Part shown: one piece after another, positions 4,468 to 43,770 of the stretch
How the letters are laid out: the number at the start of each line of letters is the position of its first letter
Position numbering within the stretch: position 1 is the first letter of the stretch
IMG/VR virus record: IMGVR_UViG_3300036924_000004
Strand: one strand, 5' to 3'
DNA: 43,770 bases
DNA from: a virus
Position numbers and translations under genes: made by a program
The notes under the pieces: generated by a model
Database searches by the model: none
Seen by the model: only the letters and a program-made list of their open reading frames with translations
Told to the model about the DNA's origin: nothing

Positions 4468-4611
4468 GTGACTTATACAGCAGAATTTATATGCCCTAAG
4501 TGCGGGCACAAGGTATACGTTAAAGGTGATTTAAGCGATGTATCCGAGACCTTAGGAAAGCGTTGCACGCGATGCACTAAAGGCCACTATGTTTTAGCAA
4601 AAAAGACCTAA
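4468..4611 (+). CDS. 47-aa zinc-ribbon protein (not in ORF track)
   Basis: GTG start 7 nt after GAGGG. Sequence VTYTAEFICPKCGHKVYVKGDLSDVSETLGKRCTRCTKGHYVLAKKT has CxxC...CxxC. Fills an otherwise empty gap. Confidence 0.4.
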   Translation: MTYTAEFICPKCGHKVYVKGDLSDVSETLGKRCTRCTKGHYVLAKKT

Positions 4612-4670
4612 AGTCTGTGCTGCCCGGTGCCGTATTAGAGATAAATATCACGGCAAACGAGGTAACGCAT

Positions 4671-7097: not shown

Positions 7098-8205
7098 TCC
7101 TCGTCTCTTGGATTCTAAAAATTGTCTTGTCGTTGCCGTTTGTAATACCTGAGGTTCCGCCTACGTGCATCCTAATTTTCTGCCCCGCAGTAAGCTTTAA
7201 GTCCGGAATGGACACGATGCCAACCGACCCGCTAGCGCTGGTTGTTAGGGCGAAACCCTTTCTAGTAGCTATACTAGTTATATCTTGCACGTTGGTACTT
7301 AGCTCCGACGAGTCTACCGTTATACCGAAAAAATTCTCGGTCGTAGTCCGCTCTTGGTAGAAAACAGACGCTAAGCAAGACCTGTTGACTAGGATATAAT
7401 CGGCTTCCGTAGCCGTACGCGGAACATAAGCAAAAGCGTCCCCAAACTCGGTTGTAGCGTTAGTGAGACATCTTATTCGCGTTTCCCCGCTACTAGAGCC
7501 GCCAAAACCTAAACCAGTATCCAGCTCTATGAGACCACAAGGCGCGGGGTAGTTTAGTACAAGCCACTTAGTGCCGTTGCTACATAACGAGATAGAGTCA
7601 TTAATGTTAAAAAGCTGGACGTTGGTGCCGTCGTCTATGGTTCCGACAACTACGACTTTGCCAGTCCCCGAGTCAAGCTTTTTAATGTCTATTATCCGGT
7701 CGGTATTATTAGCCGCAGAAGGTAGTGTGGCGTTTAAGTCAGAAGCCCCGGTAGTAAACCCGGCTATCCTTATGTTATCTGTGTCGGTAAAGGTGTAGCT
7801 CGCGGACTTAGCCGAAAATATAGGCCGAAGCGAAGTTAATGGATACCAGGACGAGGCAACCGTAGGTAAATCCGTGTTGCTGTCTATTAGACTTCGATAT
7901 ACGGACCCGCTATAGCGTACCGTTGCACCTTTGCTGTATGAGAAAGGCGACCCGCCGTTATCGGAAGTAGTTATGAACTCAGGGTACCCGCTTTGCTGGT
8001 ACTGCTGTATTTCGGTTGTTATGTCCGATAACAACCTATTGTACTTTGCGCGTTCTACTCGCCGGGCGGTAGCCGTAGTCGTCGGGTTCTCTGAGTACTG
8101 CGCCCCGTACCCGGTTTCATAGGACACGCTTCCGTCTGAGGGGTCGTCTATTGGGACCGCAATCTTATCGCCGCCCTGGGCAAAGGTGCGTCTAAAATAT
8201 GTCAT
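7084..8205 (-). CDS. tail fibre / receptor-binding protein
   Basis: Last gene of the baseplate block; 373 aa, Ser/Thr/Gly/Asn-rich. Assignment is by position. Confidence 0.6.
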   Translation of the reverse strand: MTYFRRTFAQGGDKIAVPIDDPSDGSVSYETGYGAQYSENPTTTATARRVERAKYNRLLSDITTEIQQYQQSGYPEFITTSDNGGSPFSYSKGATVRYSGSVYRSLIDSNTDLPTVASSWYPLTSLRPIFSAKSASYTFTDTDNIRIAGFTTGASDLNATLPSAANNTDRIIDIKKLDSGTGKVVVVGTIDDGTNVQLFNINDSISLCSNGTKWLVLNYPAPCGLIELDTGLGFGGSSSGETRIRCLTNATTEFGDAFAYVPRTATEADYILVNRSCLASVFYQERTTTENFFGITVDSSELSTNVQDITSIATRKGFALTTSASGSVGIVSIPDLKLTAGQKIRMHVGGTSGITNGNDKTIFRIQETRRLGV

Positions 8206-15178: not shown

Positions 15179-15625
15179 TTAGGTTTTAGAGACACTCTCA
15201 AAGTTGAACACGTAAGCGTTAGTTTTAAGCCTACCGGCGCTTGCCAGAGACGGTGCAACGGGACCGCTCATAAGCACTCCCGAAGACAAGGTGACTACCG
15301 TTCCGTCTGGATAGGCAACGTTTATAGTTATATCGTCTTTAGCAACGACCTTACCGCGTGCGTTGCGGTTAGCCTCGTGAAGTATAGACAAGTTAACGTC
15401 GTCGTCTGAGTTAGGTATCACGTTTAACGTTATCGCGATAGGCGTAGCTACGCCCCACCGAATCAAGTCTCCGTTAACACCCATAGCCGTGTTAGCTATA
15501 TCTATAGCCGGTATATCGAACGGGTCAGCGTCGTCAGCGAACTGCGATAAGTCCACGCCTGAGGGGAAAGTTCCGCTAGCTGTTAGCGTAACCACTGCCC
15601 CGAAGCCAGTAACGTCGAAAGACAT
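15179..15625 (-). CDS. tail tube protein
   Basis: 148 aa, directly downstream of the sheath gene. Confidence 0.65.
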   Translation of the reverse strand: MSFDVTGFGAVVTLTASGTFPSGVDLSQFADDADPFDIPAIDIANTAMGVNGDLIRWGVATPIAITLNVIPNSDDDVNLSILHEANRNARGKVVAKDDITINVAYPDGTVVTLSSGVLMSGPVAPSLASAGRLKTNAYVFNFESVSKT

Positions 15626-15638
15626 AGGATTTACCTCC

Positions 15639-17129
15639 TTAAATTAAAGCGTGCTGGCCGTTAACGGCGCGTATAACATCGTCTTTTGAGTATATTAAAA
15701 TGTAGCTTGCTGTCCCCGCTACTGCGTCCACAGAGGCGTTAAGCCAGAAACCGCTTGTAGCTACCTGATACCAAGCGTTGCTGTCCCCCGACAAGTCCGC
15801 TATAGCTATTTTTTGTATCTCTGTTAGCGTCTTTCCAGGAGAGATAGTGCCATTCGTCAAGGCGCTAGTGACCACGCCGCGGATAACACGTATCAGCTTA
15901 TTGCGGCCCTCGGCGTTGGCTGAGAGCTTGTCAAGAGCTAACAGCAAATTAAAGATACTGGTATCAACAGCGTCTTTAAGCCATTGCTCGTTGGCGAAGG
16001 TGTTCATATTGACTATGTCGTTCCCTTGCCCGGTAAGTACTCCGCGCTGATAAAAGCTCAGCGTTGTCCCGCCAGTCTGTGTCTGCCCGATATAGTTTAC
16101 CTTAGCCGCGTCGTAAGTATCCGCGTCGGTATCTGAGGAGACAGTAGGCGTTAAGCTCGCTTGCTGAAACATATAGTTCTTTACAGCGTTAGCTGCACCG
16201 TAGTTAGTCGAGGCAAGAACCGCCATGGGCAGTACTTCTGGGTACTCTTCGGTAAGCGTACTTAGCCGCAAAGTAACGCCGTTACCTGCTAGCGTACCGA
16301 TAGACGCCATTACCGTTGAATAGTTTGACGCTGTTACCGCTACGTGGTACTGATACAGAACATTGTTTCCGTCGTTCCAGGTAGCCGCCTCGATTATTTC
16401 GCTGTCGGACAAAGCCGCGCTGTACAAAAAGGCGAAAGAGCCAAAGTTGTTATTACTTGCGGTACTCGCGGCCAGGACTTCGGTGATCGTTTGCGCGTCA
16501 AGGCCCTCAGATATTATAGCCCCTGTAGCCGACGTCCAAGCGAGAAGCGTGTCCAGGCCCGTCGAACTCGATAGCACTATAACCTCGTCTCCTGTTTCGC
16601 CAGAAGTGAACGTAAACCGCCCGTTAGCCGCGTCCCAGGTGACTACGCACGATGCAAAAGAAGCGTCTACATTGGCGGCTCTTATAGCTACTTGTAAAGC
16701 CGCGGCTACTTCAGTTAAGCTCGTTTCGCTGCTAAGGTCTATACTGGATATGACCTCGGTATCAGCGCCTAGCGTCAGCGTGATAGCTCCAGCCGTAACG
16801 GCCTGTAGATCCGCCAAGGTAGACGTAAACGTTCCGCCTAGGATGTACGCCGCTATAGCCGTGTCTACCCACCTAGCAAAGCTTACCTTGTTTGGCTTAG
16901 TTAGGCTCTTAGATATGAAGCCGAAGTAAAAAGCCGCTCGCTTATACTCTTCGCTAGAACTGCCGAACCGAGTTAAGACCGCGTCGGCACTTGAGAACTC
17001 AGCTATTCCGTTCGCTGGTACCTCTGAGCTAGTGGTAAAAAACCGGCCTATTAGCTCTCGCCTTGTTACAGCGGTGCCTACCCCTAGGGCGCTAACGGTA
17101 GATACGTACCGGGTTATTGGGATGCTCAT
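15639..17129 (-). CDS. contractile tail sheath protein
   Basis: 496 aa, in the order neck genes - this gene - tube - chaperone - TMP. Confidence 0.75.
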   Translation of the reverse strand: MSIPITRYVSTVSALGVGTAVTRRELIGRFFTTSSEVPANGIAEFSSADAVLTRFGSSSEEYKRAAFYFGFISKSLTKPNKVSFARWVDTAIAAYILGGTFTSTLADLQAVTAGAITLTLGADTEVISSIDLSSETSLTEVAAALQVAIRAANVDASFASCVVTWDAANGRFTFTSGETGDEVIVLSSSTGLDTLLAWTSATGAIISEGLDAQTITEVLAASTASNNNFGSFAFLYSAALSDSEIIEAATWNDGNNVLYQYHVAVTASNYSTVMASIGTLAGNGVTLRLSTLTEEYPEVLPMAVLASTNYGAANAVKNYMFQQASLTPTVSSDTDADTYDAAKVNYIGQTQTGGTTLSFYQRGVLTGQGNDIVNMNTFANEQWLKDAVDTSIFNLLLALDKLSANAEGRNKLIRVIRGVVTSALTNGTISPGKTLTEIQKIAIADLSGDSNAWYQVATSGFWLNASVDAVAGTASYILIYSKDDVIRAVNGQHALI

Positions 17130-23398: not shown

Positions 23399-25130
23399 AG
23401 TGCTCTATTTCACCAAGGCGGTTTTTAGCTTTTCGGTAGCTCGGGAAAGGTCCGTCCAGCTTCTTACCTGCTTTTGACGTCACCCAGAACTCGCCGTTCT
23501 CCTTAGTTATCTCGTCGGAAGCTTGCGGCTCGTAGCCTACGTCTGCGCTAGCCTCTGGCGGCGGCTCGTCGGGGACCCTCGGCGGCTCAGGCTCGTTAGG
23601 AACGAGAGCCTCGGGCTCGTCCTCATACTCCGGCTCTTCTATTTTCTCTAACTCGTTGTAACCGCTCTTATCGTCGAGCCTTACCCGGTCCCTAACCTCG
23701 TATGGCGTTACCGCCCCCATATCGAAGTAAAGCTTGTCTGTCTGCGCCTTGGTAGCGTTAAGAGTGGCTTGTTCAGTCTCGCTAGGCATAGCTACAGGAC
23801 GCCAGGCATGGGTAACCCTAACGCCATTAAGCGCCGAAGCCGATAAGCACTCATAGTGCCGCTCTAAAATGTCGTCAAAGTCGTTAACCTGCACGGACTC
23901 AAGCTCCTCATGGTACGTTTTTATCTCGTGCTCTCCGGTTGCGTTGAAGCCTTTCGGAGACGTACCTAGAAGCCTAGTAGCTGGTACCTTAGCTATAGAC
24001 GCGACTAATTGATATTGAGTCATAACCGTGGTATCAAAATCGGATAACGTTGTTTCTAGCTGCGTTACGTCTTCGCCTTTTCCAACGGCTAAGAACCCAT
24101 GGTTATTTTTCATCTCGGTCTGGTATTGTAGCGCCTCTTCAAAAGCATCCTGGTTTTTTATAGCCGCGTCCATATCCATGGTTCTAGTGTATAGCCTCTT
24201 AGTTAAGGCAAGCTCCGGGGCCTCATTAGCGGTACGCTCAGCCGCGTATACCCGCTCGTATATTTGCTGCACCATAGAAACGCCGCCGTAACGGTAAGAC
24301 GGTTTTAAAACGTCAGATACCTCTTCGCCTCTCAGTATTATAAAGTGAGACTTGTGGATCTTAACGCCGTTAACCGTCCAATACGTTGGCTCATAGAAGT
24401 CGAGGGAAGACGGATCAGAGATAGCGCTCTGACTTAGCTCCGGTGCTAGCCAGTACGGATCTATCTGCGATAGGCCTTTATACGTACCGGGTTTTATAGC
24501 TTCGACGCTGAAAGGCTTCTCGTAGTACTGCTTGTCAGAGCTGTCTACCTTAATAAGTACGTGGCGTATCCCAAACACGTTGTTAAACTTGTGGGCCTCT
24601 ACAAGGTTTTTACGCACCTTAAACTTTTTATCGAGGCGTTTAACCCTTTCTATAATGCTATCGTCGCCCCCGGTGTCTCCGGTGACGTTTATATCCCAGC
24701 CGTTCCTAACAGCGTCCTTTCCTTTAGCCGCGCATGCTTTAGACACTAGCCATTGCTGAGCTATTACTGAGCACGTTTGATAACTCAAAAACCCTTGCGC
24801 TATATACCAACGCAAAACGGGAATGGGGACGTATGAGTCGTTAAGAGAAAATATGTTCTTGGCTCTAGTCTCAAAACTAGATAAGTCGCTGTCTTGCGCG
24901 GACCCTGAAAGTGAAGTTATGTCCGGTTTGATGAAAGCTTTCTCGCGACACCAATTAGCTAGTAAAGCCTCGCGCTCCTTAGTCCTAGCATTACTAAAAA
25001 ACGCGCCGGTTCTCTCATTCACCTCAGGATTAACCGAGTCCGTAGCCGAGTCCTTAGCCGAGTCCTTAGCGAGCTTTTTATTGAACAGATTTCTTACGAA
25101 GGAACGCATCGAAAAAACTCCTTGATACAC
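23361..25130 (-). CDS. portal protein with C-terminal P/E-rich linker and basic mini-domain
   Basis: 589 aa, directly after TerL. The start may be ATG 25109. Confidence 0.8.
   Translation of the reverse strand: MYQGVFSMRSFVRNLFNKKLAKDSAKDSATDSVNPEVNERTGAFFSNARTKEREALLANWCREKAFIKPDITSLSGSAQDSDLSSFETRAKNIFSLNDSYVPIPVLRWYIAQGFLSYQTCSVIAQQWLVSKACAAKGKDAVRNGWDINVTGDTGGDDSIIERVKRLDKKFKVRKNLVEAHKFNNVFGIRHVLIKVDSSDKQYYEKPFSVEAIKPGTYKGLSQIDPYWLAPELSQSAISDPSSLDFYEPTYWTVNGVKIHKSHFIILRGEEVSDVLKPSYRYGGVSMVQQIYERVYAAERTANEAPELALTKRLYTRTMDMDAAIKNQDAFEEALQYQTEMKNNHGFLAVGKGEDVTQLETTLSDFDTTVMTQYQLVASIAKVPATRLLGTSPKGFNATGEHEIKTYHEELESVQVNDFDDILERHYECLSASALNGVRVTHAWRPVAMPSETEQATLNATKAQTDKLYFDMGAVTPYEVRDRVRLDDKSGYNELEKIEEPEYEDEPEALVPNEPEPPRVPDEPPPEASADVGYEPQASDEITKENGEFWVTSKAGKKLDGPFPSYRKAKNRLGEIEHFAGKGDGEKAKN
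25036..25071 (-). repeat. 12-bp x3 tandem repeat in the portal N-terminus (AKDSAKDSATDS)
   Basis: gagtccgtagcc gagtccttagcc gagtccttagcg on the + strand. Confidence 0.9.
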
Positions 25131-26544
25131 TTTTAGGGGCCAGACACATATGCAGCGCGTCGGCGATATTAGGTGACGGTTGCTTGGTGCGCTTTTCCAT
25201 ATCCGCCTTACTCTCTACTTTTTTCTTACTGTTAACACCGCTCTTAACCCAAATGGGCGTAGAAAGCTCCTTAACTAACTTATTAAACACCTCATCGTCT
25301 GCTATGTCTATCGATATCATGTCAGCGGGGTCAACGGGTTCGCCGAGTACGGCAAAACGGTATGTGTTATAGAACCTCTGAGCCGTTACGGCGTGAGCCT
25401 GAGCTTTGGCGTTTGCGTACATTTCGCCATTAGTTAAGTTCGTACCGGGTATCATCTCGTCAGGATCAACTACCGGATCGCCAGCGTTAAACGGGGTAAC
25501 CTCGACGCTAAAGGCGTTCATCTTTTCGTCTTTTCCGTTTATAATGTCTTCGACGAAAACACTAACCCCGTCTCCAAAGCCCCCGCACTCGTCGTAGCGA
25601 AAGTCCTCGGCGGCTAGGTCCTTAGTAGCGCTCATAGCGATCCGCGTCGCCTCTCTAAGATCCGGAGACTTTAGCCACTCATGGATATAGTCAAGGGTAT
25701 TCCCATTAACTGACACTACCGCGTTATAGTCTCGACCCTGGCCAGCGGGGTCATAGGCCGCAATGCGCGTACCGGTCTTAGTGAACCCTGGAAGCTTCGA
25801 CGCCCACCTGGCCGCACGTATCCATTCACGGTCTACGATGCAGTCCTCATAGTTACCTAAGGGCTTACCCTCCCAAACGTTCTCATAATCGCGCCTAGGC
25901 CTAGTAGCAAGAAAGTGTTTACGCTCTACGTCTAGATGCTCTGGGAAGTATACATTATCTCGCCAGTTTATCTTGCGAGCTATGGACCCAGGCGGCTGGT
26001 TAACTACGAAACGCTGCCAGGTGTCGTCTAGCTCGTCGTCGGGGTTAAATATTATAACCCGTATCGGCGTTCTCCCGTTAAGAGGTCTTATGGACGGTAG
26101 AAACACGTCCCAGGAGTTCTTAGTTATGTTTTGGCTTTCCTCAGCTAGAACCCCGTCTACGTTAGCTATGGACTTAATGGACAGGATGTTATTTTTCAAG
26201 CCCTTGAATATAAACTTTGTGCCGTTAAGACCAACTATTTCTTTTTTAAGTATCTTGTAAAAACCCTCTAGACCGCGTTTAATTATGGCTGTTTCTATCT
26301 CGGTTTTTATCGACTCTTCTATGGAATTTTGCAGCTCGCGAGTAACAAGGATACGCATAGGCCTTAACGTTCCCTCAACTACAAAGGCATCCGCGAATGT
26401 CCACGTTTTAGCCGAGCCCCTACCGCCATAGGCTATGAAGTAATTATACTTAGAGTTAAACACACTCCGGTTAGCTATTATCTTTTCAGGATCAAGCTCA
26501 AAGAAATCCGCGAAAGCCTCTTGCGGTGACCAGTTTAACTGCAT
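25078..26544 (-). CDS. terL: terminase large subunit
   Basis: Walker A in FIAYGGRGSAKTW, a C-terminal nuclease-type acidic region, 488 aa, follows the small subunit gene. Confidence 0.92.
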   Translation of the reverse strand: MQLNWSPQEAFADFFELDPEKIIANRSVFNSKYNYFIAYGGRGSAKTWTFADAFVVEGTLRPMRILVTRELQNSIEESIKTEIETAIIKRGLEGFYKILKKEIVGLNGTKFIFKGLKNNILSIKSIANVDGVLAEESQNITKNSWDVFLPSIRPLNGRTPIRVIIFNPDDELDDTWQRFVVNQPPGSIARKINWRDNVYFPEHLDVERKHFLATRPRRDYENVWEGKPLGNYEDCIVDREWIRAARWASKLPGFTKTGTRIAAYDPAGQGRDYNAVVSVNGNTLDYIHEWLKSPDLREATRIAMSATKDLAAEDFRYDECGGFGDGVSVFVEDIINGKDEKMNAFSVEVTPFNAGDPVVDPDEMIPGTNLTNGEMYANAKAQAHAVTAQRFYNTYRFAVLGEPVDPADMISIDIADDEVFNKLVKELSTPIWVKSGVNSKKKVESKADMEKRTKQPSPNIADALHMCLAPKSVSRSFFDAFLRKKSVQ

Positions 26545-26931
26545 CTAGGCGCCCTCGTTTTTTCGCGTAACCGATACCTCTATCTTGTCCCAGGGTATTA
26601 ACGCCGCTAGCGTGTCGGTCTCCACTTCAGACTGCTTTCGGTAGTCTTTGAACCTAGACTGCATGAGAAATGTCAACATACCGGGTTGCTCTCTCGTCAT
26701 GCTCTTCTCGCCTGTGGCGCCTCCCTGGAGAACGGTCTCGTAATACGCCTGGGCCTTGGCCAACGCTATCTCGCACGCCTCATTGAACTCGGGAAACTCT
26801 TGGCGCCAGCGGCGTACAGTTGACGGAGAAACGCCTATCTCGGCAGCGAACTGCGTCAAGGTGAGACCCTCCCCCAAAGATACTATAATGTGGTCGCAAA
26901 AAATAGGACTGTATTTTGAATAACCTGCCAT
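26545..26931 (-). CDS. terS: terminase small subunit (HTH)
   Basis: LTLTQFAAEIGVSPSTVRRWRQEFPEF HTH. ATG 26931 follows GGGAGGA (track start 26943). Abuts TerL. Confidence 0.7.
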   Translation of the reverse strand: MAGYSKYSPIFCDHIIVSLGEGLTLTQFAAEIGVSPSTVRRWRQEFPEFNEACEIALAKAQAYYETVLQGGATGEKSMTREQPGMLTFLMQSRFKDYRKQSEVETDTLAALIPWDKIEVSVTRKNEGA

Positions 26932-26954
26932 GCGTCCTCCCATAAAATGCCCCT

Positions 26955-32353: not shown

Positions 32354-32574
32354 ATATCTACGCAACCGTTGCGCAGTGTTGTGAATTTACCACAGTGCAT
32401 AGGGATTACGCTAAATAAGCGCTGGTAATGATAACAGCTAGTTGCGAGGAGGTGTCCCGTGTCGACGTATCGCAATTAGCCGTTTCGCGCATTTCGCTAC
32501 GCCTTTCTTTCCTCGCCCGCCAATAGCGCGTAGCTTTTCACTACGTTTTGCCTAGATACGTACCGGGGTTTAAA

Positions 32575-32841
32575 CCTGTCCAGGGTAAGTCCAGAGCATT
32601 TGCCATACATGCGATTAAGCGTAAAGCATTGATTTTTATATATTAGTCTAGTGTATCCATACTATCTATAGATAAATATATTTATTATGTATATATAAAA
32701 AGTAAAAACGCATAAAATAGTACACATATAGATATACGTATATAGCGTGTAGTGAATATACCCCCTAGCTGTGGACAGGGGTGGACAGGAACGCAACCCA
32801 CCGTAATCAAAACTAAAATAGCGAATGGCGTAGTGGACAAG
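32575..32841. promoter_or_regulatory. putative replication origin: AT-rich unwinding region flanked by TGGACAGG iterons
   Basis: CCTGTCCA (32575-32582, inverted), an AT-rich block at about 32630-32760 with ATATAGATA twice, GTGGACAGG at 32771 and 32781, and GTGGACAAG at 32833. Lies upstream of the primase-helicase gene. Confidence 0.45.
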
Positions 32842-33029: not shown

Positions 33030-35645
33030 ATGCACCAGCTAAAGTTGTCAACAGGAAAGTTCGACCTAGGCCGCTGTGATGAGACTACAACCTCCTGGCC
33101 CTCGTTCTCAAGATCCCTAATGAATCCGCTGCGTTTAGACAAGCCTCAAAGCTACATCGATGGGCTAAAGTCCCGCGCCTTGGCCGCGACGCCTGAGGCC
33201 TCAGAGGCGGACCGGGAGCTGCGAACGCTCAAGGGCGCAGCTGGCTACTTTGTCGGTGGCACGTTCAAAACAAAGCTGGAAAAGTCCAATAGTTACGCTA
33301 GGAAAAACTTTAACCTAGCCGCCCGAACCCTCATAACGCTGGACGCAGACTTTGCCCCAACCAACTTCCCGGCTGTTATTCACAATTCCAGCGTTAGCCC
33401 CTATATCGGTACGTACTACACGACCTTTTCCCACAAGGATGATCGCCCAAAAATACGCATAGTTATGCCGCTAACAGGGCCCATATCGCCTGAAAAATAC
33501 CAACCTATAGCGCGGAAAATAGCCCAGTTAATATCGCCTGATCTAAGCTGGTTTGACCCCGTCTCCTTTGTAGAGGCGCAGCTTATGTTCTTTCCGGTAG
33601 TCCCTTTAGATAATCCATTTTGGGCGGACTCTTGGGGCTACGTGCCAGTCGATGGCGACGAGATACTCGCTTTGTATGAGAACTGGCAAAATCCGCTTTC
33701 CTGGCCCTTAACGCCTAAGGAGCTCGCTGACCCCCGAACGTACCGGGTCGACCAACTGAACGACCCGAGGCAAAAACCGGGCCTCATAGGGGCATTTTGC
33801 AACGCCTACTCGATATCTGAGGTAATCGAGACCTACCTCAACGATAAATACGTGCCGGTAGAGTCTAACCGCTACACCCATCTGGGCGGTAGTGGACACG
33901 CTGGCGCAGTGGCTTACGACGGCGACACCCATCTTTACTCGCGGCACACCCATGACCCTGCTAATACGGGAACCTGCCATAACGCGTTCGATCTAGTCCG
34001 CATCCATAAGTTCGGCTACCTCGACCAGACGGCCCCTGCGGGAACCCCGAGCAATGAGCTGCCAAGCCTAAAAGCCATGCTCGACTTCGCTAGCCGCGAT
34101 CCGGCCCTAGCGATAATGGGCTTTGGCAAGGTTACGCCCGATGCGCTTCCTGAGGAGGTTAGAGACTTGCCTCCTGAGGTTCTGGCTACTCTAGGCTACA
34201 ACGTGGACACGCAGATAGGGGCAAAGCCCAAGCCGCTAAGCCCTGGGCAAATCCAAGACGATATCCTTGAGGTACTGTCTGGGCGAAAAGGCCGCTGCTT
34301 TAACTCTGACTCGGATATCCAAAAGTGGGGAAGCGTCGACTTTTTCTCGTGTAACTATAAGGTCGTCGCGCCGATGACTGAGGGCTCAAACCCGATCATA
34401 ATACGCCTAGGCGACTCGTGCAAGCTAGCCGAACCCGAGGAAGTCGTCCTTGAGCTAATGGACTGGCTTAGGGTCGCCGTGGAAAGAGATAAGCGCTTTT
34501 TGCCGTATTTTAAGGACTCAAAGGACCTTATCCGTTACGTTAAGCTGTGGACCCACAAGCAAGCTGACCTTGAAGAGCTGCCAAAGCCTGTAGCGTTCCG
34601 AAGCGACCCCGAGCTGACGATGAACCGTCTAAGCTACGACCCACTACCATGTGACGACGTGCAGCTTCCGAGCGTAGCGCCTACGTTCCACTCGATGCTA
34701 AAGCGGATATCTACTAACAGGACAGCGCTTGTGCAGCGGCTAGGAAGTATCTTCGATATGAAAGCTAACCGCAAGCAAGCCGTTTGGCTATACGGTCCAG
34801 GCGATGCGGGAAAGAGCACTATCCAATGGCTAATCTCGCAAATGACCGGCCCAAAGCCCGTGTGCACGTTAAGCCAGGAGCTTATAAAATCGGCGTTCTT
34901 TACGCAAAACCTAGTGGGTCGAAGGGTAGCCCTAGTGCCAGAAGCCGGGGCTTGGTTTATACGCCAGGACAGATTCAAGTCGCTCACCGGTGACAGGATA
35001 CACGGCGTTAACCCAAAGGGGAAGCCGAGCTACTCAGCAAATATCGATACGATGTTCTTTTTCTTTTCAAACGATAAGCCCGAGATAGCGAACTCCAAGG
35101 AGTTTTTGAGCCGGCTCATAGACTGCAAGATCGACTCGATACCCGAAGACGAGATACTCGGCGAGTTCGAGGTTCAGCAGCGTCTGACAAGCGAGATGGC
35201 TTATATAATCGGTTACTGCGTATCAGCGTACAATAGGGTTAACCTGGGCCGAAGCATACCGGTTGAGCAAGCGACTCTAAAAGAGATAGCCGAGGACTTC
35301 CAGTCGAGCGAGTATGAGTTCGTTGAGCGCTACCTTAAGCCGGGAGAACCCGACGACTATAACGAGCACGAGCACGTTACGCCCAACCAGCTTTGCCGCA
35401 TGTATGCCGAGTGGCTGGGAACCGGCAGAAACGGGGCCAAGGAGCGCGACCTAAAGACCTTCCTGCGCCGCGACTACAAGGCCTATATCAAGAAACTAGG
35501 CTTCATGTCCGGTAAGCGCTATAGGGTTTGGTGCGGCGTGCTGTGGCGAGACCCGACGGAGCTAATGGCACTAGACCCGCCACCGGTATCACCGGCGCAG
35601 GTCAAAAGCAGCTTAATACTAGTACCGCCAGAAAATAGGCAGTAG
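33030..35645 (+). CDS. primase-polymerase (AEP-like) fused to P4/D5-type SF3 helicase
   Basis: N-terminal ITLDADF (DxD) and TFSHKDDRPKIRIVMPL. C-terminal Walker A in VWLYGPGDAGKSTI and Walker B-like RVALVPEAG. 871 aa. Confidence 0.85.
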   Translation: MHQLKLSTGKFDLGRCDETTTSWPSFSRSLMNPLRLDKPQSYIDGLKSRALAATPEASEADRELRTLKGAAGYFVGGTFKTKLEKSNSYARKNFNLAARTLITLDADFAPTNFPAVIHNSSVSPYIGTYYTTFSHKDDRPKIRIVMPLTGPISPEKYQPIARKIAQLISPDLSWFDPVSFVEAQLMFFPVVPLDNPFWADSWGYVPVDGDEILALYENWQNPLSWPLTPKELADPRTYRVDQLNDPRQKPGLIGAFCNAYSISEVIETYLNDKYVPVESNRYTHLGGSGHAGAVAYDGDTHLYSRHTHDPANTGTCHNAFDLVRIHKFGYLDQTAPAGTPSNELPSLKAMLDFASRDPALAIMGFGKVTPDALPEEVRDLPPEVLATLGYNVDTQIGAKPKPLSPGQIQDDILEVLSGRKGRCFNSDSDIQKWGSVDFFSCNYKVVAPMTEGSNPIIIRLGDSCKLAEPEEVVLELMDWLRVAVERDKRFLPYFKDSKDLIRYVKLWTHKQADLEELPKPVAFRSDPELTMNRLSYDPLPCDDVQLPSVAPTFHSMLKRISTNRTALVQRLGSIFDMKANRKQAVWLYGPGDAGKSTIQWLISQMTGPKPVCTLSQELIKSAFFTQNLVGRRVALVPEAGAWFIRQDRFKSLTGDRIHGVNPKGKPSYSANIDTMFFFFSNDKPEIANSKEFLSRLIDCKIDSIPEDEILGEFEVQQRLTSEMAYIIGYCVSAYNRVNLGRSIPVEQATLKEIAEDFQSSEYEFVERYLKPGEPDDYNEHEHVTPNQLCRMYAEWLGTGRNGAKERDLKTFLRRDYKAYIKKLGFMSGKRYRVWCGVLWRDPTELMALDPPPVSPAQVKSSLILVPPENRQ

Positions 35646-40097: not shown

Positions 40098-40682
40098 TTA
40101 CGGTGTATTATTAATAGCCTTATCGGCTAACTCGAACGTTTCCTTTAACTCGTCAAAACTAGTTATCGGTAGGCCCCGGCCTTGTGCCTCTTCGCAGCTG
40201 TCAAATAGTAGCGCCTGAGCGTTAAAAGGTTTTCCGTCTACGCGGCAGTAAACGCCATTAGCTATTGGCTTAGACGCGGCGTCTATAGACATGCCGATGT
40301 CGATACCGCCAGCATTGCGAAGTACCCGGGTCACTAAGCCTAGGTCCTCGTTGTCACATACTGGCCCTATGTAGCCCCTATCTAGCGCGGACCTTATAGC
40401 CACTGTTTTTCCGTAATATTTGTCCGGCCAGTACCCGAAAAGGCCCTCGCGTCGGTCTATCGATAAGTCAACACCTACCCCGGTAAGCGGCCGGTTGAGA
40501 TCTATCTCGTGCGGGCCGCTGTAGAACCCCGCGGCCCGACCTCCCCAAGTACTCGGGTGATCTTTATAGGTTAATAAGTTACGCAGAGCCGCGGTTTCTT
40601 CAGTAAGCGACTCCACTTGCCGCTCCAGTTCTGCTATGCGTCTAGATTTTTTAGAAAAGATGAATCTCATAGGGCTCCTCAC
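40098..40682 (-). CDS. hypothetical protein with N-terminal coiled coil
   Basis: 194 aa ORF. Confidence 0.6.
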   Translation of the reverse strand: MRSPMRFIFSKKSRRIAELERQVESLTEETAALRNLLTYKDHPSTWGGRAAGFYSGPHEIDLNRPLTGVGVDLSIDRREGLFGYWPDKYYGKTVAIRSALDRGYIGPVCDNEDLGLVTRVLRNAGGIDIGMSIDAASKPIANGVYCRVDGKPFNAQALLFDSCEEAQGRGLPITSFDELKETFELADKAINNTP

Positions 40683-40885
40683 TGCTTAGTTGGTATATCC
40701 GATATTTTAACACCGTAGGCTTTTGCCAGTTTTGGCGCCTGGCGCTTAGAACAGAAACGTTTGCCGCACTCTAGAAGGGATAAGAAGCCAATAGAGACGC
40801 CAGCTACAGGAGTTAGCTGCTCCAGAGTCTTGCCCATAGCGGTGCGCTTTACTTTTAACTTGCGGCCTTTACTTAGTTTTACCAA
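40679..40885 (-). CDS. small HTH DNA-binding protein (Cro/XRE-like), first gene of the early operon
   Basis: KTLEQLTPVAGVSIGFLSLLECGKR HTH-like segment. TTG start 6 nt after AAGGAGA. Confidence 0.55.
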   Translation of the reverse strand: MVKLSKGRKLKVKRTAMGKTLEQLTPVAGVSIGFLSLLECGKRFCSKRQAPKLAKAYGVKISDIPTKQ

Positions 40886-41037: not shown

Positions 41038-41673
41038 TTGTTAGAGCAAGCTATTCAAACGTTAACGCAGCACGTAGCCGCGCTGACAGAAACCGTAAAA
41101 ACTCTAGACCAGTCGATAAAAGCCGCTAATACCATTAGCGCTAAACCGAAAGCCACTCGAAAGCCTACCAAGGCGAGCGCGTCCAAGGACAAGGCGGAGG
41201 CCCCCCGCGAGCAGGTGCAGATAGACGCTAACGGTAACGGCGTGACGATGTCACAAGCGCCACAGCCACAAGCGCCACAGCCACAAGCGCCACAGCCACA
41301 AGCGCCACAGCCACAGCAGTACGCCGCAACTTTCGTTCCGGGCCAAGGGTACTCACCGGGTGTTCCCCCTTACGCTCCGCACGCTCCGGAAGCCGTGTAT
41401 CAACCGCCGCCGCCGCCCCAAGCTCCGCAGCAGTACGCGCCTCCCGCGCAACCCTTACCGCCGCCGGCTAATCAAGCGCCTCTTGAGATAACCGAGCAAA
41501 CGGTACGAGATGCGCTTGTAGGCCTTTACAAGGAGACTATGGACAATACGATAACCGCGCAGATACTAGCGCCTTTTGGGGCTAAGACAGCTATAGACCT
41601 AAAGCCTGATCAGCTAGTTCCGGTGTACAATGCGATTCAGGAACGCCGGGCGCAAATACCTAGACGAGGGTAG
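41038..41673 (+). CDS. P/Q-rich protein: coiled-coil N-terminus, PQPQA repeats, small globular C-terminus
   Basis: TTG start 9 nt after AAGGAG. (PQPQA)x4 is followed by about 70 aa of P/Q/A/Y-rich sequence. Confidence 0.65.
   Translation: MLEQAIQTLTQHVAALTETVKTLDQSIKAANTISAKPKATRKPTKASASKDKAEAPREQVQIDANGNGVTMSQAPQPQAPQPQAPQPQAPQPQQYAATFVPGQGYSPGVPPYAPHAPEAVYQPPPPPQAPQQYAPPAQPLPPPANQAPLEITEQTVRDALVGLYKETMDNTITAQILAPFGAKTAIDLKPDQLVPVYNAIQERRAQIPRRG
41254..41313 (+). repeat. 15-bp x4 perfect tandem repeat caagcgccacagcca (coding)
   Basis: Units at 41254, 41269, 41284 and 41299. Confidence 0.95.
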
Positions 41674-41680
41674 AACTACT

Positions 41681-42880
41681 ATGAATAAAGACAGGTTTAG
41701 CTTAGCGGCGTCCAACGCCCATAGGTACTTGACTTGCTTGGCGTCTCCTCGCGAAGAGGCGCGGTATAAAAGAGCGAGGACTAAATATACGGAAGAGGGC
41801 GACATCGCCCACGCGCTTTTAACTAAGTGCTTCGAGGATAACGTAGACCCCCTGGAATGCGTTGGGCATACCGTTAAGGTTCTTAACAAGGGCTTTGAGG
41901 GCGTTGTTACCAAGGAAATGGCGGCCGCCGTAAGCCAAGCTTATGACTTCGCTATTGGCGTAAAAGAGTCTTGTGGCGGAGACCTGCACACGGAGTACCC
42001 TTTCGGCTTAAGCTGGTTAAAGCCGGGGCAAAGCGGAATAGCCGACATCATAATCATGGACATGAAGTCCAAAACTATGCACATCATGGACTTTAAATAC
42101 GGTAGTGGTCACCTAGTCGACGCCGAATGGAATGAGCAAATGTTAATTTACGCCGAGGCGGCGCGGCGCGCTTTACTCATGTTTTACGGGCCTATAGCGC
42201 GCATTAAGCTTTACATACTGCAACCACGACGAGAGCACTACTCGGTATGGGATTTAACGGTAGACAAGCTAAGAGACTGGGTTAACGGCGTAGTCCTGCC
42301 AACGGCTAAACGGATATCCGACGGCAATGACTTACCCTACGTACCGAGTGAAAAAGCTTGCAAATTCTGTAGGGCTAAAGGTGAGTGCCGCGCGCTAGCC
42401 GAAGAGGCCCTTAAAACCGTATCGGAGGGTTTCGGCCCAGTTAATGGAGTGCGGCTAGAAGAGCCTATCGAGCTTAAGCCAACTACGGCCTTATCGGTAG
42501 ACGAGGTATTTGCTTGCAAAAGCGCCGTTAAGCTAATAAGGCTATGGTGCGACGCCATAGATGATAAGGCTAAGGAGTACCTGGAAGTAGGCCTAGCAGA
42601 CGAGTCCTGCGGCTGGAAGCTAGGCGAGGCTACAACTAAGCGTAAGTGGCTAGACGAGGAAAAGGTAGATAAGGCGTTAGCGCGTGCTGGGGTCCCTGTA
42701 GATGCAAGACGCAAGACCACGCTAATATCACCAGCACAAGTCGAGAAAAAGCTAGGCTCTGATCACCCTATCCTTAAGAAATACGCGGTTAAGCCTAAAG
42801 GCGGCCCAGTGGTTATACCGGTAAGTGACCCACGGGAAGCGGTGAACCCAGCGAAAGGCTTCGGCCCTGTTTTGGTATGA
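41681..42880 (+). CDS. PD-(D/E)XK exonuclease, DUF2800/Cas4-like with C-terminal Cys cluster
   Basis: ADIIIMDMKSKTMHIMDFKYG (D...D-x-K), QMLIYA, CKFCRAKGEC. ATG 41681 (track ORF starts upstream at 41630, inside the previous gene). Confidence 0.8.
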   Translation: MNKDRFSLAASNAHRYLTCLASPREEARYKRARTKYTEEGDIAHALLTKCFEDNVDPLECVGHTVKVLNKGFEGVVTKEMAAAVSQAYDFAIGVKESCGGDLHTEYPFGLSWLKPGQSGIADIIIMDMKSKTMHIMDFKYGSGHLVDAEWNEQMLIYAEAARRALLMFYGPIARIKLYILQPRREHYSVWDLTVDKLRDWVNGVVLPTAKRISDGNDLPYVPSEKACKFCRAKGECRALAEEALKTVSEGFGPVNGVRLEEPIELKPTTALSVDEVFACKSAVKLIRLWCDAIDDKAKEYLEVGLADESCGWKLGEATTKRKWLDEEKVDKALARAGVPVDARRKTTLISPAQVEKKLGSDHPILKKYAVKPKGGPVVIPVSDPREAVNPAKGFGPVLV

Positions 42881-42911
42881 ACTTTATTTAGGTCCGACAC
42901 TAAGTTTTTAC

Positions 42912-42940
42912 TTGAAATCGGGCTTCACTAACTGTATAAA
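42912..42940 (+). promoter_or_regulatory. sigma70-like promoter TTGAAA-N17-TATAAA upstream of the repeat array and SSB gene
   Basis: Hexamers at 42912-42917 and 42935-42940. Confidence 0.5.
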
Positions 42941-42949
42941 AAATTAACT

Positions 42950-43041
42950 AAAGTAACAGCGTAACAAAGTAACAGCGTAACAAAGTAACAGCGTAACAAA
43001 GTAACAGCGTAACAAAGTAACAGCGTAACAAAGTAACAGCG
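42950..43041 (+). repeat. 16-bp tandem repeat aaagtaacagcgtaac x5.75 (11 GTAACA hexamers at 8-nt spacing), non-coding
   Basis: Direct reading with zero mismatches. Hexamers occur at 42953 + 8n for n = 0..10. Confidence 0.97.
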
Positions 43042-43082
43042 AAAACGAAAATTTTAACAGCTTTTAAAAGGAACCACGTAAC

Positions 43083-43770
43083 ATGGCAAGACTAATGTTC
43101 AAAGACGTGCGGGTGTCTTTCCCCGCACTATTTAGCAGCCCGGTCATTAACGGAAAAGAAGCCAAGATGGGGGCTAAACTCCTGTTAGACCCGGCTAAAG
43201 ACGCCGCCTATGTGCAGCAGACAAACGAGGCTATAACCCGAGTAATGCAGGAAAAGTGGGGAGCTAACCCGCCGCAAATACCAGCCGACAAGTATTGCTT
43301 GCGTATAGGCAATCGACCCGAATATCAAGGAGCGCTAGTGCTTACCGCTAGCAATAAAAACAGGCCCTGGGTGTGGGACTCAGACGGACAGACCCGCATC
43401 GACGACGAAAGTAGGTGCCGTATATATTCCGGCTGCCGGGTAAACGCCGCAGTCGATATCTATGCTTTCGTTCACAAGCAGTACGGGGCGCAGATTAGCG
43501 CCGAGCTAGTAGCTATCCAGTTTAACGGCGACGACGTTCCGCTTGAAGGTGGCGTGATAACACGCGAGCAAGCAGCGGAGGGCTTCGGCTCGGTAAATGC
43601 GGTTAGCCCAATGCCAGGAATGCCAGGCCCCGGCGCCGGACTTCCACAAGGCTATCCTGCTCCAGCAGCGCAACCGCCACAAGGCTATCCTGCTCCAGCA
43701 GCGCAACCGCCACAAGGCTATCCTGCTCCAGCAGCGCAACCGCCACAAGGCTATCCTGCTCCAGCAGCGC
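43083..43770 (+). CDS. ssDNA-binding protein (T7 gp2.5 / DUF2815-like), 5' portion; continues at 1..185
   Basis: MARLMFKDVRVSFPALF... N-terminus is typical of gp2.5-like SSBs found next to DUF2800 nucleases and family A polymerases. The C-terminal part is PQGYPAPAAQP repeats running off the window end. Confidence 0.8.
   Translation, partial: MARLMFKDVRVSFPALFSSPVINGKEAKMGAKLLLDPAKDAAYVQQTNEAITRVMQEKWGANPPQIPADKYCLRIGNRPEYQGALVLTASNKNRPWVWDSDGQTRIDDESRCRIYSGCRVNAAVDIYAFVHKQYGAQISAELVAIQFNGDDVPLEGGVITREQAAEGFGSVNAVSPMPGMPGPGAGLPQGYPAPAAQPPQGYPAPAAQPPQGYPAPAAQPPQGYPAPAA
43660..43770 (+). repeat. 33-bp tandem repeat, 3 units plus a 12-nt partial; same family as 1-131
   Basis: Units at 43660, 43693 and 43726, with a partial unit at 43759-43770. 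Confidence 0.95.

Follow-up and report, generated by a model that had tools for sequence, protein, structure and literature searches.

The phased hexamer array between the nuclease and SSB genes

The viral record IMGVR_UViG_3300036924_000004 from IMG/VR (43,770 nt, analysed at its full length and hereafter called the window) is a phage contig that closes into a circle and has a GC content of 49%. Its replication module contains a 202-nt gap between the gene of a DUF2800 nuclease and that of a protein binding single-stranded DNA (SSB), and this gap contains an array of eleven GTAACA hexamers at a strict 8-nt phase. The nuclease gene (PD-(D/E)XK, Cas4-like; Pfam PF10926, E = 3.9e-66) lies directly upstream of the gap at 41678-42880, with an alternative start at 41630. 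The SSB is of the Enc34/gp2.5 type (Pfam PF10991, E = 6.4e-23), and its gene runs from 43083 to 43770 and across the circular junction into 112-185; both genes and all features of the gap are on the plus strand. The 111-nt end overlap of the contig falls in a coding repeat, and the SSB has 253 aa as assembled, its translation being stitched over the junction. The module also encodes PolA (241-2205), a VRR-NUC protein and an SNF2 helicase. The D5/DUF5906 primase-helicase gene is found apart from the nuclease-SSB module, at 33030-35645.

The gap begins with a promoter-like site at 42912-42940, which consists of TTGAAA (42912-42917), a 17-nt spacer and TATAAA (42935-42940), with TG at 42933-42934. 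A sigma-70 consensus scan does not list this site because the -10 hexamer has no T at position 6; the conservation of the hexamer blocks in two relatives nevertheless suggests that the site is real. It is followed by a degenerate first unit in array phase, TTAACTAA (42945-42952), which is part of the conserved block 'aaaaattaactaaa'. The array itself (42953-43040) starts about 12 nt past the -10 hexamer and about 6 nt past the predicted transcription start, with no stable structure predicted 5' of it, and reads (GTAACAGC GTAACAAA) x5 + GTAACAGC without a mismatch. Downstream, an A-rich leader tail (43041-43067) contains the decayed units GAAAACGA and AAATTTTAACAGC as well as TTAACA at 43054-43059, and the ribosome-binding region (43068-43085) comprises AAGGA (43068-43072), a 10-nt spacer and a further GTAACA (43078-43083) that overlaps the ATG (43083-43085).

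Tandem Repeats Finder (TRF) described the array as period 8 with 11.1 copies, and as period 16 with 6.0 copies over 42945-43041 (98% matches); the latter figure is reached only by counting the degenerate TTAACTAA at 42945. The copy numbers given here and below for all genomes are those of short-read assemblies. The double-hexamer pattern GTAACANNGTAACA was seen 10 times in the window, compared with 0.13 times in dinucleotide-preserving shuffles, and none of 100 shuffles reached 10. No further GTAAC-N3-GTAAC cluster was found in the window, nor a comparable noncoding array before any other of its genes. The array units are contiguous, lacking the unique spacers between repeats that mark a CRISPR.

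The predicted leader is about 136 nt long, and 49% of its bases are A. Its lack of structure is a prediction from folding the RNA and comparing it with dinucleotide-preserving shuffles: the leader had a z-score of +2.82, and all 200 shuffles folded at least as well. The leader of a relative, L124, gave a z-score of +2.11 (196 of 200 shuffles), and that of the more distant locus L354 had a minimum free energy of -6.4 kcal/mol over 121 nt and is essentially unpaired. No inverted repeat was detected in 42850-43100, and no Rfam family matched the leader at E <= 1.

A first-pass annotation of this DNA, made from its letters alone, had already described the eleven hexamers with alternating units and invariant spacing, the TTAACA at 43054, the GTAACA ending on the A of the SSB start codon, the weak Shine-Dalgarno (SD) sequence 10 nt before that codon, the near absence of self-complementarity and the distinction from CRISPR, and in all of these our reading agrees. 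Two details are to be amended. The 16-bp unit, counted there at 5.75 copies, is present in 5.5 perfect copies (88 nt), and the promoter, placed correctly, was termed strong, a word that needs qualifying since the sigma-70 scan leaves the site out.

Conservation, turnover and recurrence of repeat leaders

A search with the primase-helicase found relatives at 97, 90, 74 and 61% identity, and a search with the nuclease added one more at 82%. The contigs of three relatives (L124, L251 and L125) extend to the SSB-array region. L124 and L251, whose nucleases are 79% and 82% identical to that of the window, keep the nuclease-array layout, with 7 hexamers in each versus 11 in the window. In the alignment of these genomes (alignment A2), the -35 and -10 blocks (the latter with 'aaaaattaactaaa'), 'tttaaaaggaa' and 'cgtaacatggcaaga' are unchanged, and 'TTTAAAAGGAA' and 'CGTAACATGGCAAGA' of the ribosome-binding region are invariant in all three genomes, while the promoter spacer between the -35 and -10 blocks varies. 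The L124 array is arranged as GTAACAGC aaaaacatc (GTAACATC)x5 GTAACAGC, that is, 1+6 hexamers, and the L251 array as (GTAACATC)x4 GTAACAGC aaaaacatc GTAACATC GTAACAGC, that is, 5+2 hexamers. The GTAACA hexamer and its 8-nt phase are therefore kept, whereas the spacer dinucleotide is TC instead of the GC/AA of the window and the arrangement differs as well. The region aligned to the A-rich tail of the window reads AAAACAAG GTATCTCG TAAAACAA in the relatives. The decayed units beside the perfect ones show the tract to be old, though slippage keeps renewing it.

The 61% relative, L125, carries a different 8-nt array, AAGTCAGA x3.8, at the end of its contig; the contig stops inside the array, and the SSB side lies beyond its end. 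Contigs tend to break at such arrays. Between its nuclease gene and the 8-nt array, the L125 contig is noncoding over at least 380 nt (15393-15774), and within this stretch a second TATAAA precedes AGTAACTTAA, in resemblance to the -10/leader start of the window.

Beyond these relatives, a DNA similarity search of the region against 50,697 phage records gave no match, and IMG/VR held neither an exact 24-mer of the array nor a close relative of the SSB or the primase-helicase. A search with the SSB protein returned two distant matches only, one without an array and the other with a 3-unit 8-nt repeat. Scanning the conserved 20-mer TGTATAAAAAATTAACTAAA against the genome contigs yielded 19 chance matches in AT-rich genomes, none of which encodes a window protein. 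Eight cultured phages with an Enc34-type SSB (APSE-1, BPP-1, Xfas53 and others) have no arrays, and their nuclease-SSB gaps measure -4 to 15 nt (93 nt in PHS21); the hosts of these phages are Proteobacteria. The statement in the first-pass annotation that no element of this form had been described before gp2.5-like SSB genes seems correct as far as cultured phages go, but uncultured phages do have analogues, as follows. The repeat leader is lineage-specific yet recurrent.

Two independent sets of loci were examined: a metagenome set of 80 loci (297 kb), collected with the nuclease alignment and with the SSB starts then located, and an IMG/VR set of 80 loci (332 kb; 55 non-redundant SSB starts), found with the SSB alignment. 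Among 42 non-redundant SSB upstream regions, period-8 repeats at a shuffle p <= 0.01 were present in six (window, L124, L002, L141, L188 and L189) and period-6 repeats in two more. Of the nine period-8 three-copy arrays in the 297 kb, four are placed at -90..+10 relative to an SSB start, against an expectation of 0.12. Arrays of period 6-8 were found at 7 of 41 SSB starts in the metagenome set, versus 5 near about 635 other open reading frame (ORF) starts, and at 7 of 55 SSB starts in the IMG/VR set, versus 11 near about 604 other ORF starts. In both sets, repeats of this kind are thus found ahead of SSB starts in 13-17% of cases and ahead of other ORF starts in about 1-2%; the count of other starts includes spurious ORFs, but even with half that denominator the excess at SSB starts is four- to ten-fold. 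The further units in SSB leaders are GATAAANC x3, TTAAACNA x3, AAAAACGA x3, (AAAACT/C)x5, TAAAACC x3 and CAATAAA x3. All SSB-leader repeat units are A-rich on the sense strand, and their sequences are unrelated between lineages.

The clearest analogue is L354, in which a DUF2800 nuclease gene is followed by a hairpin, a perfect array of CACAAAAG x8.2 (2925-2990), the SSB ATG at 2998, which has no SD sequence, and an ORF of PolA size. Its SSB is 34% identical to that of the window and its nuclease 29% identical (E = 5e-36). L354 has the architecture of the window with an unrelated 8-mer. Every array of at least 3.8 copies has period 8, namely those of the window (11 copies), L124 (7), L251 (7), L125 (at least 3.8) and L354 (8.2).

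Several of the loci showed further features of the repeats. In L188, the entire A-rich repeat leader ttttcagaataacaaaccagtAAAAACGAAAAAAGGAGAAAACGAAATG is duplicated (2138-2193 and 2389-2444), with one copy before a small inserted gene and the other before the SSB gene, which may reflect cassette-like movement. In L028 (minus strand; 7758-7787 of the reverse complement), units of the GTAACAAA type follow the terminator of the major tail protein gene and extend up to the ATG of a 102-aa ORF. A sense-oriented GTAACA x3 precedes the tape-measure gene of L077 (1745-1766), and CACAAAAG x3 stands after a terminator and a promoter, before a small gene without assigned function, in L361 (3073-3096, minus strand).

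The array as a candidate leader operator, and other readings

Such arrays recur at the SSB gene, their sense strand is A-rich, their units differ by lineage, no structure is predicted for the leader, and the period equals the site size of the protein. Taken together, this evidence favours a role at the RNA level in SSB translation. The site size is known from related proteins. [quoted passage not shown] The 8-nt period of the array equals this published site size of the family.

Within this role, our preferred reading, which we put forward tentatively at a little short of an even chance, is that the array is an autogenous, in-register binding site for the SSB on its own unstructured mRNA leader. 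Transcription would start a few bases past TATAAA, or come through from the nuclease gene, giving a leader that, being built of an 8-nt unit that does not pair with itself, should stay single-stranded up to the weak ribosome-binding site. We infer that once free SSB exceeds the available single-stranded DNA (ssDNA), its monomers, each with a 7-8-nt site and binding cooperatively, would occupy this leader in register, one per unit, and that the filament would extend across AAGGA and the ATG and shut off SSB translation. An uncoated leader, A-rich and free of structure, would instead aid ribosome loading. Slippage would easily alter the copy number, which would act as the threshold.

The nearest parallel is the gene 32 operator of T4/RB69; in T4, a 5' pseudoknot precedes more than 40 nt of less-structured RNA with repeated UUAAA/UAAA elements and the ribosome-binding site, a region that gp32 occupies cooperatively (PMC535899). 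Like this operator, the array stands in the SSB's own mRNA leader and reaches to the ribosome-binding site (array and decayed units at 42945-43067, ribosome-binding region at 43068-43085), a layout shared by the window, L124, L251 and L354. Both leaders have more than 40 nt of unstructured RNA (predicted in our case) and several short repeated elements, 11 x GUAACA here versus UUAAA/UAAA in T4, and both would be filled cooperatively by SSB monomers once ssDNA is saturated. In contrast to T4, the SSB here is of the gp2.5/Enc34 type (PF10991) and is no homologue of gp32, no 5' pseudoknot is present, and the repeats are exact, tandem, phased at the site size of the protein and far more numerous (7-11). 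The gp32 operator of phage RB49 is reported to lack the pseudoknot as well (PMC535899). The array would therefore work like the gp32 operator without being a member of its family, from which protein homology and the pseudoknot set it apart.

Several points weigh against SSB binding to the leader. No experiment shows RNA binding or self-regulation by any gp2.5/Enc34-type SSB, and RNA is nowhere mentioned in the Enc34 SSB paper (PMC5686142). A structured 5' nucleation site like the gp32 pseudoknot is not predicted in the leader, and the transcription start is itself a prediction. Lack of structure as such would not keep GTAACA while the spacers change, and a pattern of six conserved and two free positions is that of double-stranded DNA iterons in other phages. 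In addition, compared with two control hexamers, GTAACA x3 at 8-bp phase is at least five times commoner in phage contigs, where it behaves like an origin-type DNA site. The short 3-copy arrays at other SSB genes overlap the SD sequence and may partly represent A-rich low complexity. Finally, the cultured phages without a repeat leader manage their SSB gene anyway.

The first-pass annotation had taken the array for a multi-site element of a cooperative binder, which is still the best fit and is partly supported. Of its proposals, autogenous control of the SSB on the repeat leader is the one that the comparative evidence (recurrence, A-richness and period 8) favours, whereas its variant modelled on TRAP falls away: the units GUAACAGC and GUAACAAA contain no GAG/UAG, and the period is 8 nt, not 5-6.

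A broader claim, which we regard as possible but doubtful, is that gp2.5/Enc34-type SSBs have, in phased repeat leaders, an autogenous operator of a type not recognised before, with an 8-nt ruler matched to the site size of the protein, an in-register filament running to the start codon, a repeat number that sets the switch-off level, and repeated emergence with different units (GTAACANN, CACAAAAG and AAGTCAGA). To our knowledge, T4 gene 32 is the sole well-worked phage case of stoichiometric SSB supply. If the claim is true, a second, independently evolved route to such supply would exist in the large gp2.5/Enc34 family, and self-titration on the protein's own unstructured mRNA would be a general design in which the operator period equals the protein footprint. 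It would also offer a simple tunable part with a set-point given by the repeat number, and would account for the breaks that assemblies of such phages show to either side of the SSB gene.

The nearest rival to SSB binding is a plain translation enhancer or standby site, which we consider unlikely, if less so than any of the readings taken up after it. A structure-free A/C-rich leader would here aid loading of the 30S subunit (protein S1) on an mRNA whose SD sequence is weak or lacking, and would supply the large amount of SSB required by replication with no feedback by the SSB; slippage would make repeats the easiest route to a long leader that does not pair. The leaders of the window, L124 and L354 are all predicted to be unstructured; the SD sequence is weak with 10-nt spacing in the window and absent in L354; sense arrays also abut starts other than those of SSB genes (the 102-aa ORF of L028, the tape-measure gene of L077 and the CACAAAAG x3 of L361); and the unit sequence differs freely among lineages. 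Known enhancers are comparable in part. The omega leader of tobacco mosaic virus (TMV) has 8-nt direct repeats of ACAAUUAC together with CAA repeats, and CA-rich enhancers are known in E. coli. Like the array, these are G-poor, non-pairing leaders, partly made of 8-nt direct repeats, and they can act without an SD sequence, as the L354 array must. Unlike the array, they are not gene-specific and have no known tie to an SSB or to a protein site size. An enhancer leaves unexplained the enrichment of repeat leaders at SSB starts, 5-10 times over other ORF starts, the period of 8 in all long arrays, and the constancy of the hexamer across three relatives despite spacer change, and the late genes of the window have no such leader.

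Next comes a role in double-stranded DNA, which we hold to be rather improbable. The hexamers would be iterons for the winged-helix origin-binding domain of a primase-helicase of the superfamily 3 (SF3) type, be it the phage's own, that of a co-infecting phage or that of a satellite, and the array would be a second origin, an enhancer or a titration site resembling P4 crr or plasmid incA, or a decoy. GTAACA x3 at 8-nt phase was scanned in IMG/VR together with two control hexamers at equal phase, and it occurred in at least 120 stretches, versus 23 and 22 for the controls. Among the matches listed, there were 83 distinct contexts with variable spacers; the ORFs 120-220 bp from the arrays were repeatedly DUF927+HTH_56 (Cch-HTH), DUF5906, VapE-like or MCM-like helicases, the MCM-like case being that of Roseburia phage Jekyll (L123, array 4596-4617); in many arrays, TGTTAC copies in inverted orientation lay beyond a tract that was AT-rich or of alternating purines and pyrimidines; and no Enc34-type SSB gene stood beside an array. 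The arrays were found in both orientations relative to adjoining genes, with 16 sense versus 9 antisense ORFs within 60 nt among these matches, which is not significant. Since there is no significant strand bias, this class acts as DNA sites and cannot be used as support for an RNA role of the window array. GTAACA x3 is a real, widespread origin-type DNA element, and its position beside unrelated SF3 helicase families points to a widespread, undescribed origin grammar in uncultured phages. The one hexamer stands beside quite different SF3 helicases (loci L003-L122 and L123); in BLAST, the C-terminal regions of array-adjacent helicases of different families resemble neither one another nor the window protein.

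An instructive case is L014 (6709-6863, minus strand), whose layout is like that of the Staphylococcus aureus pathogenicity islands (SaPIs): an ORF of primase-helicase size (848 aa), inverted TGTTAC copies, an AT-rich/purine-pyrimidine tract and GTAACA x3. The N-terminus of the 848-aa ORF is similar to the DUF5906 protein of L078, and L014 shares replication-module genes with the window (SNF2, VRR-NUC and PolA). SaPI Rep proteins use 6-12 penta- or hexanucleotide iterons, which flank an AT-rich region, adjoin rep and are bound by the C-terminal winged helix of Rep (PMC9371898). The origins of SaPI Rep/PriRep and of P4 alpha resemble the array in having short (5-8 bp) iterons in 6-12 copies, the array having 11 hexamers. 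These origins differ from it in their two opposed iteron sets flanking an AT-rich region and in the adjoining initiator-helicase gene.

The window in fact has an origin-like region of this kind beside the primase-helicase gene (32574-32841), and its iterons are CCTGTCCA / GTGGACAGG, with no GTAACA pair. It consists of CCTGTCCAGG in inverted orientation at about 32574, an AT-rich/purine-pyrimidine tract (32630-32750), and two GTGGACAGG copies at 10-nt spacing with GTGGACAAG (32771-32841). The corresponding region of L124 has the same layout, and that of L125 has CCATAC/CCATAG x3, a purine-pyrimidine tract and CTATGG x5, so that iteron and helicase vary together, in the manner of a cognate site. 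The array, by comparison, lies 7.3 kb from the primase-helicase gene and is all-direct, with neither an inverted set nor a central AT-rich tract and with no TGTTAC pairs nearby, and Pfam and PHROGs scans of 30 ORFs, in which most small ORFs had no match, found no second initiator in the window. The GC skew of the window follows gene orientation and locates no origin. A DNA-iteron role would also leave the unrelated A-rich arrays before the SSB genes of other lineages unexplained. It is kept alive because the hexamer and phase are identical to those of a common origin iteron and because the hexamer is conserved with free spacers. The first-pass annotation had suggested iterons that cooperate with the origin at 32.6 kb, after the example of P4, whose ori and crr share type I iterons. 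In that form the suggestion is not upheld, as the window array and the helicase-adjacent origin have different iterons and the array has no inverted set; a DNA-level role of another kind is possible in view of the origin-type GTAACA x3 found elsewhere.

A transcriptional operator, at which a small phage repressor or activator on tandem 7-8-bp sites would set transcription of the SSB/polymerase operon, is improbable. Tandem 8-bp sites are typical of operators of the ribbon-helix-helix (RHH) type, such as the 8-bp met boxes of MetJ, the 7-bp heptads of omega and ParG/parH, and the array shares with these its many direct 7-8-bp units beside a promoter, beginning only about 12 nt past the -10 hexamer. 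The window also has many small ORFs without an assignable function. Among 30 window ORFs scanned with Pfam and PHROGs, however, no RHH protein or other tandem-site binder was detected, most small ORFs having no match, and a weak Cro-type helix-turn-helix at 40679-40885 was the only binder-type match. RHH operators are duplex DNA sites without a strand bias in composition, and the strict sense-strand A-richness in other lineages would be unexpected for such sites. The arrays of L002 and L354, moreover, have no convincing promoter of their own.

Neutral slippage, by which the array would be a functionless, hypermutable tract of microsatellite type in a tolerant intergenic leader, strikes us as scarcely probable. 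The perfect copies imply a recent expansion, the number of copies and their arrangement are not the same in close relatives, and contigs break at such arrays. Against this, hexamer and phase persist though the flanking protein differs by about 20%, the decayed units beside the live array show that the tract is old, and independent lineages have analogous arrays far more often at the SSB gene than at other genes.

A pac site bound by the small terminase, as the first-pass annotation had also offered, finds no support and is highly improbable: in one IMG/VR family with 27 array loci, which fall into 3 locus groups, the median distance of GTAACA x3 from a TerS gene is 122 bp among the matches listed, but the window array lies inside the replication operon, about 16 kb from the terminase genes (25078-26943), and the assembly closes inside a coding repeat and so gives no terminal information.

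Two further candidates were rejected. A decoy or sensor for MazF (ACA) does not agree with the frequency of ACA in the window genes, where it is undepleted (observed/expected 0.98). Mimicry of 16S rRNA by GTAACAAGGTAAC was judged a coincidence; the spacers vary freely in other arrays. GTAACAAGGTAAC is identical to 16S positions 1497-1509 (the 1492R primer site). Of the 16 bases of the 16S 3' region CGTAACAAGGTAACCG (about 1496-1511), which itself has two GTAAC copies 8 nt apart, 14 are matched by the array unit CGTAACAAAGTAACAG (42958-42973), and this too is probably coincidental.

Coding repeats near the array

The SSB and a protein encoded upstream of the nuclease both contain coding repeats. 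At the C-terminus of the SSB (43644-43770 and 1-127), a 33-nt coding repeat specifies PQGYPAPAAQP in at least 4 copies, and the true copy number is uncertain because the circular assembly closes inside this repeat. The tail is rich in P, Q, G and Y, its last residues are PPGYR, and it lacks the acidic C-terminus described for T7-type SSBs. In L124, the repeat of the SSB tail is a 30-nt variant. A 211-aa ORF upstream of the nuclease gene (41038-41673) matches no family and has, at 41252-41315, a perfect 15-nt coding repeat (PQAPQ x4.3) within a proline/glutamine-rich linker. At the equivalent site, L124 carries 15-nt and 24-nt repeats.

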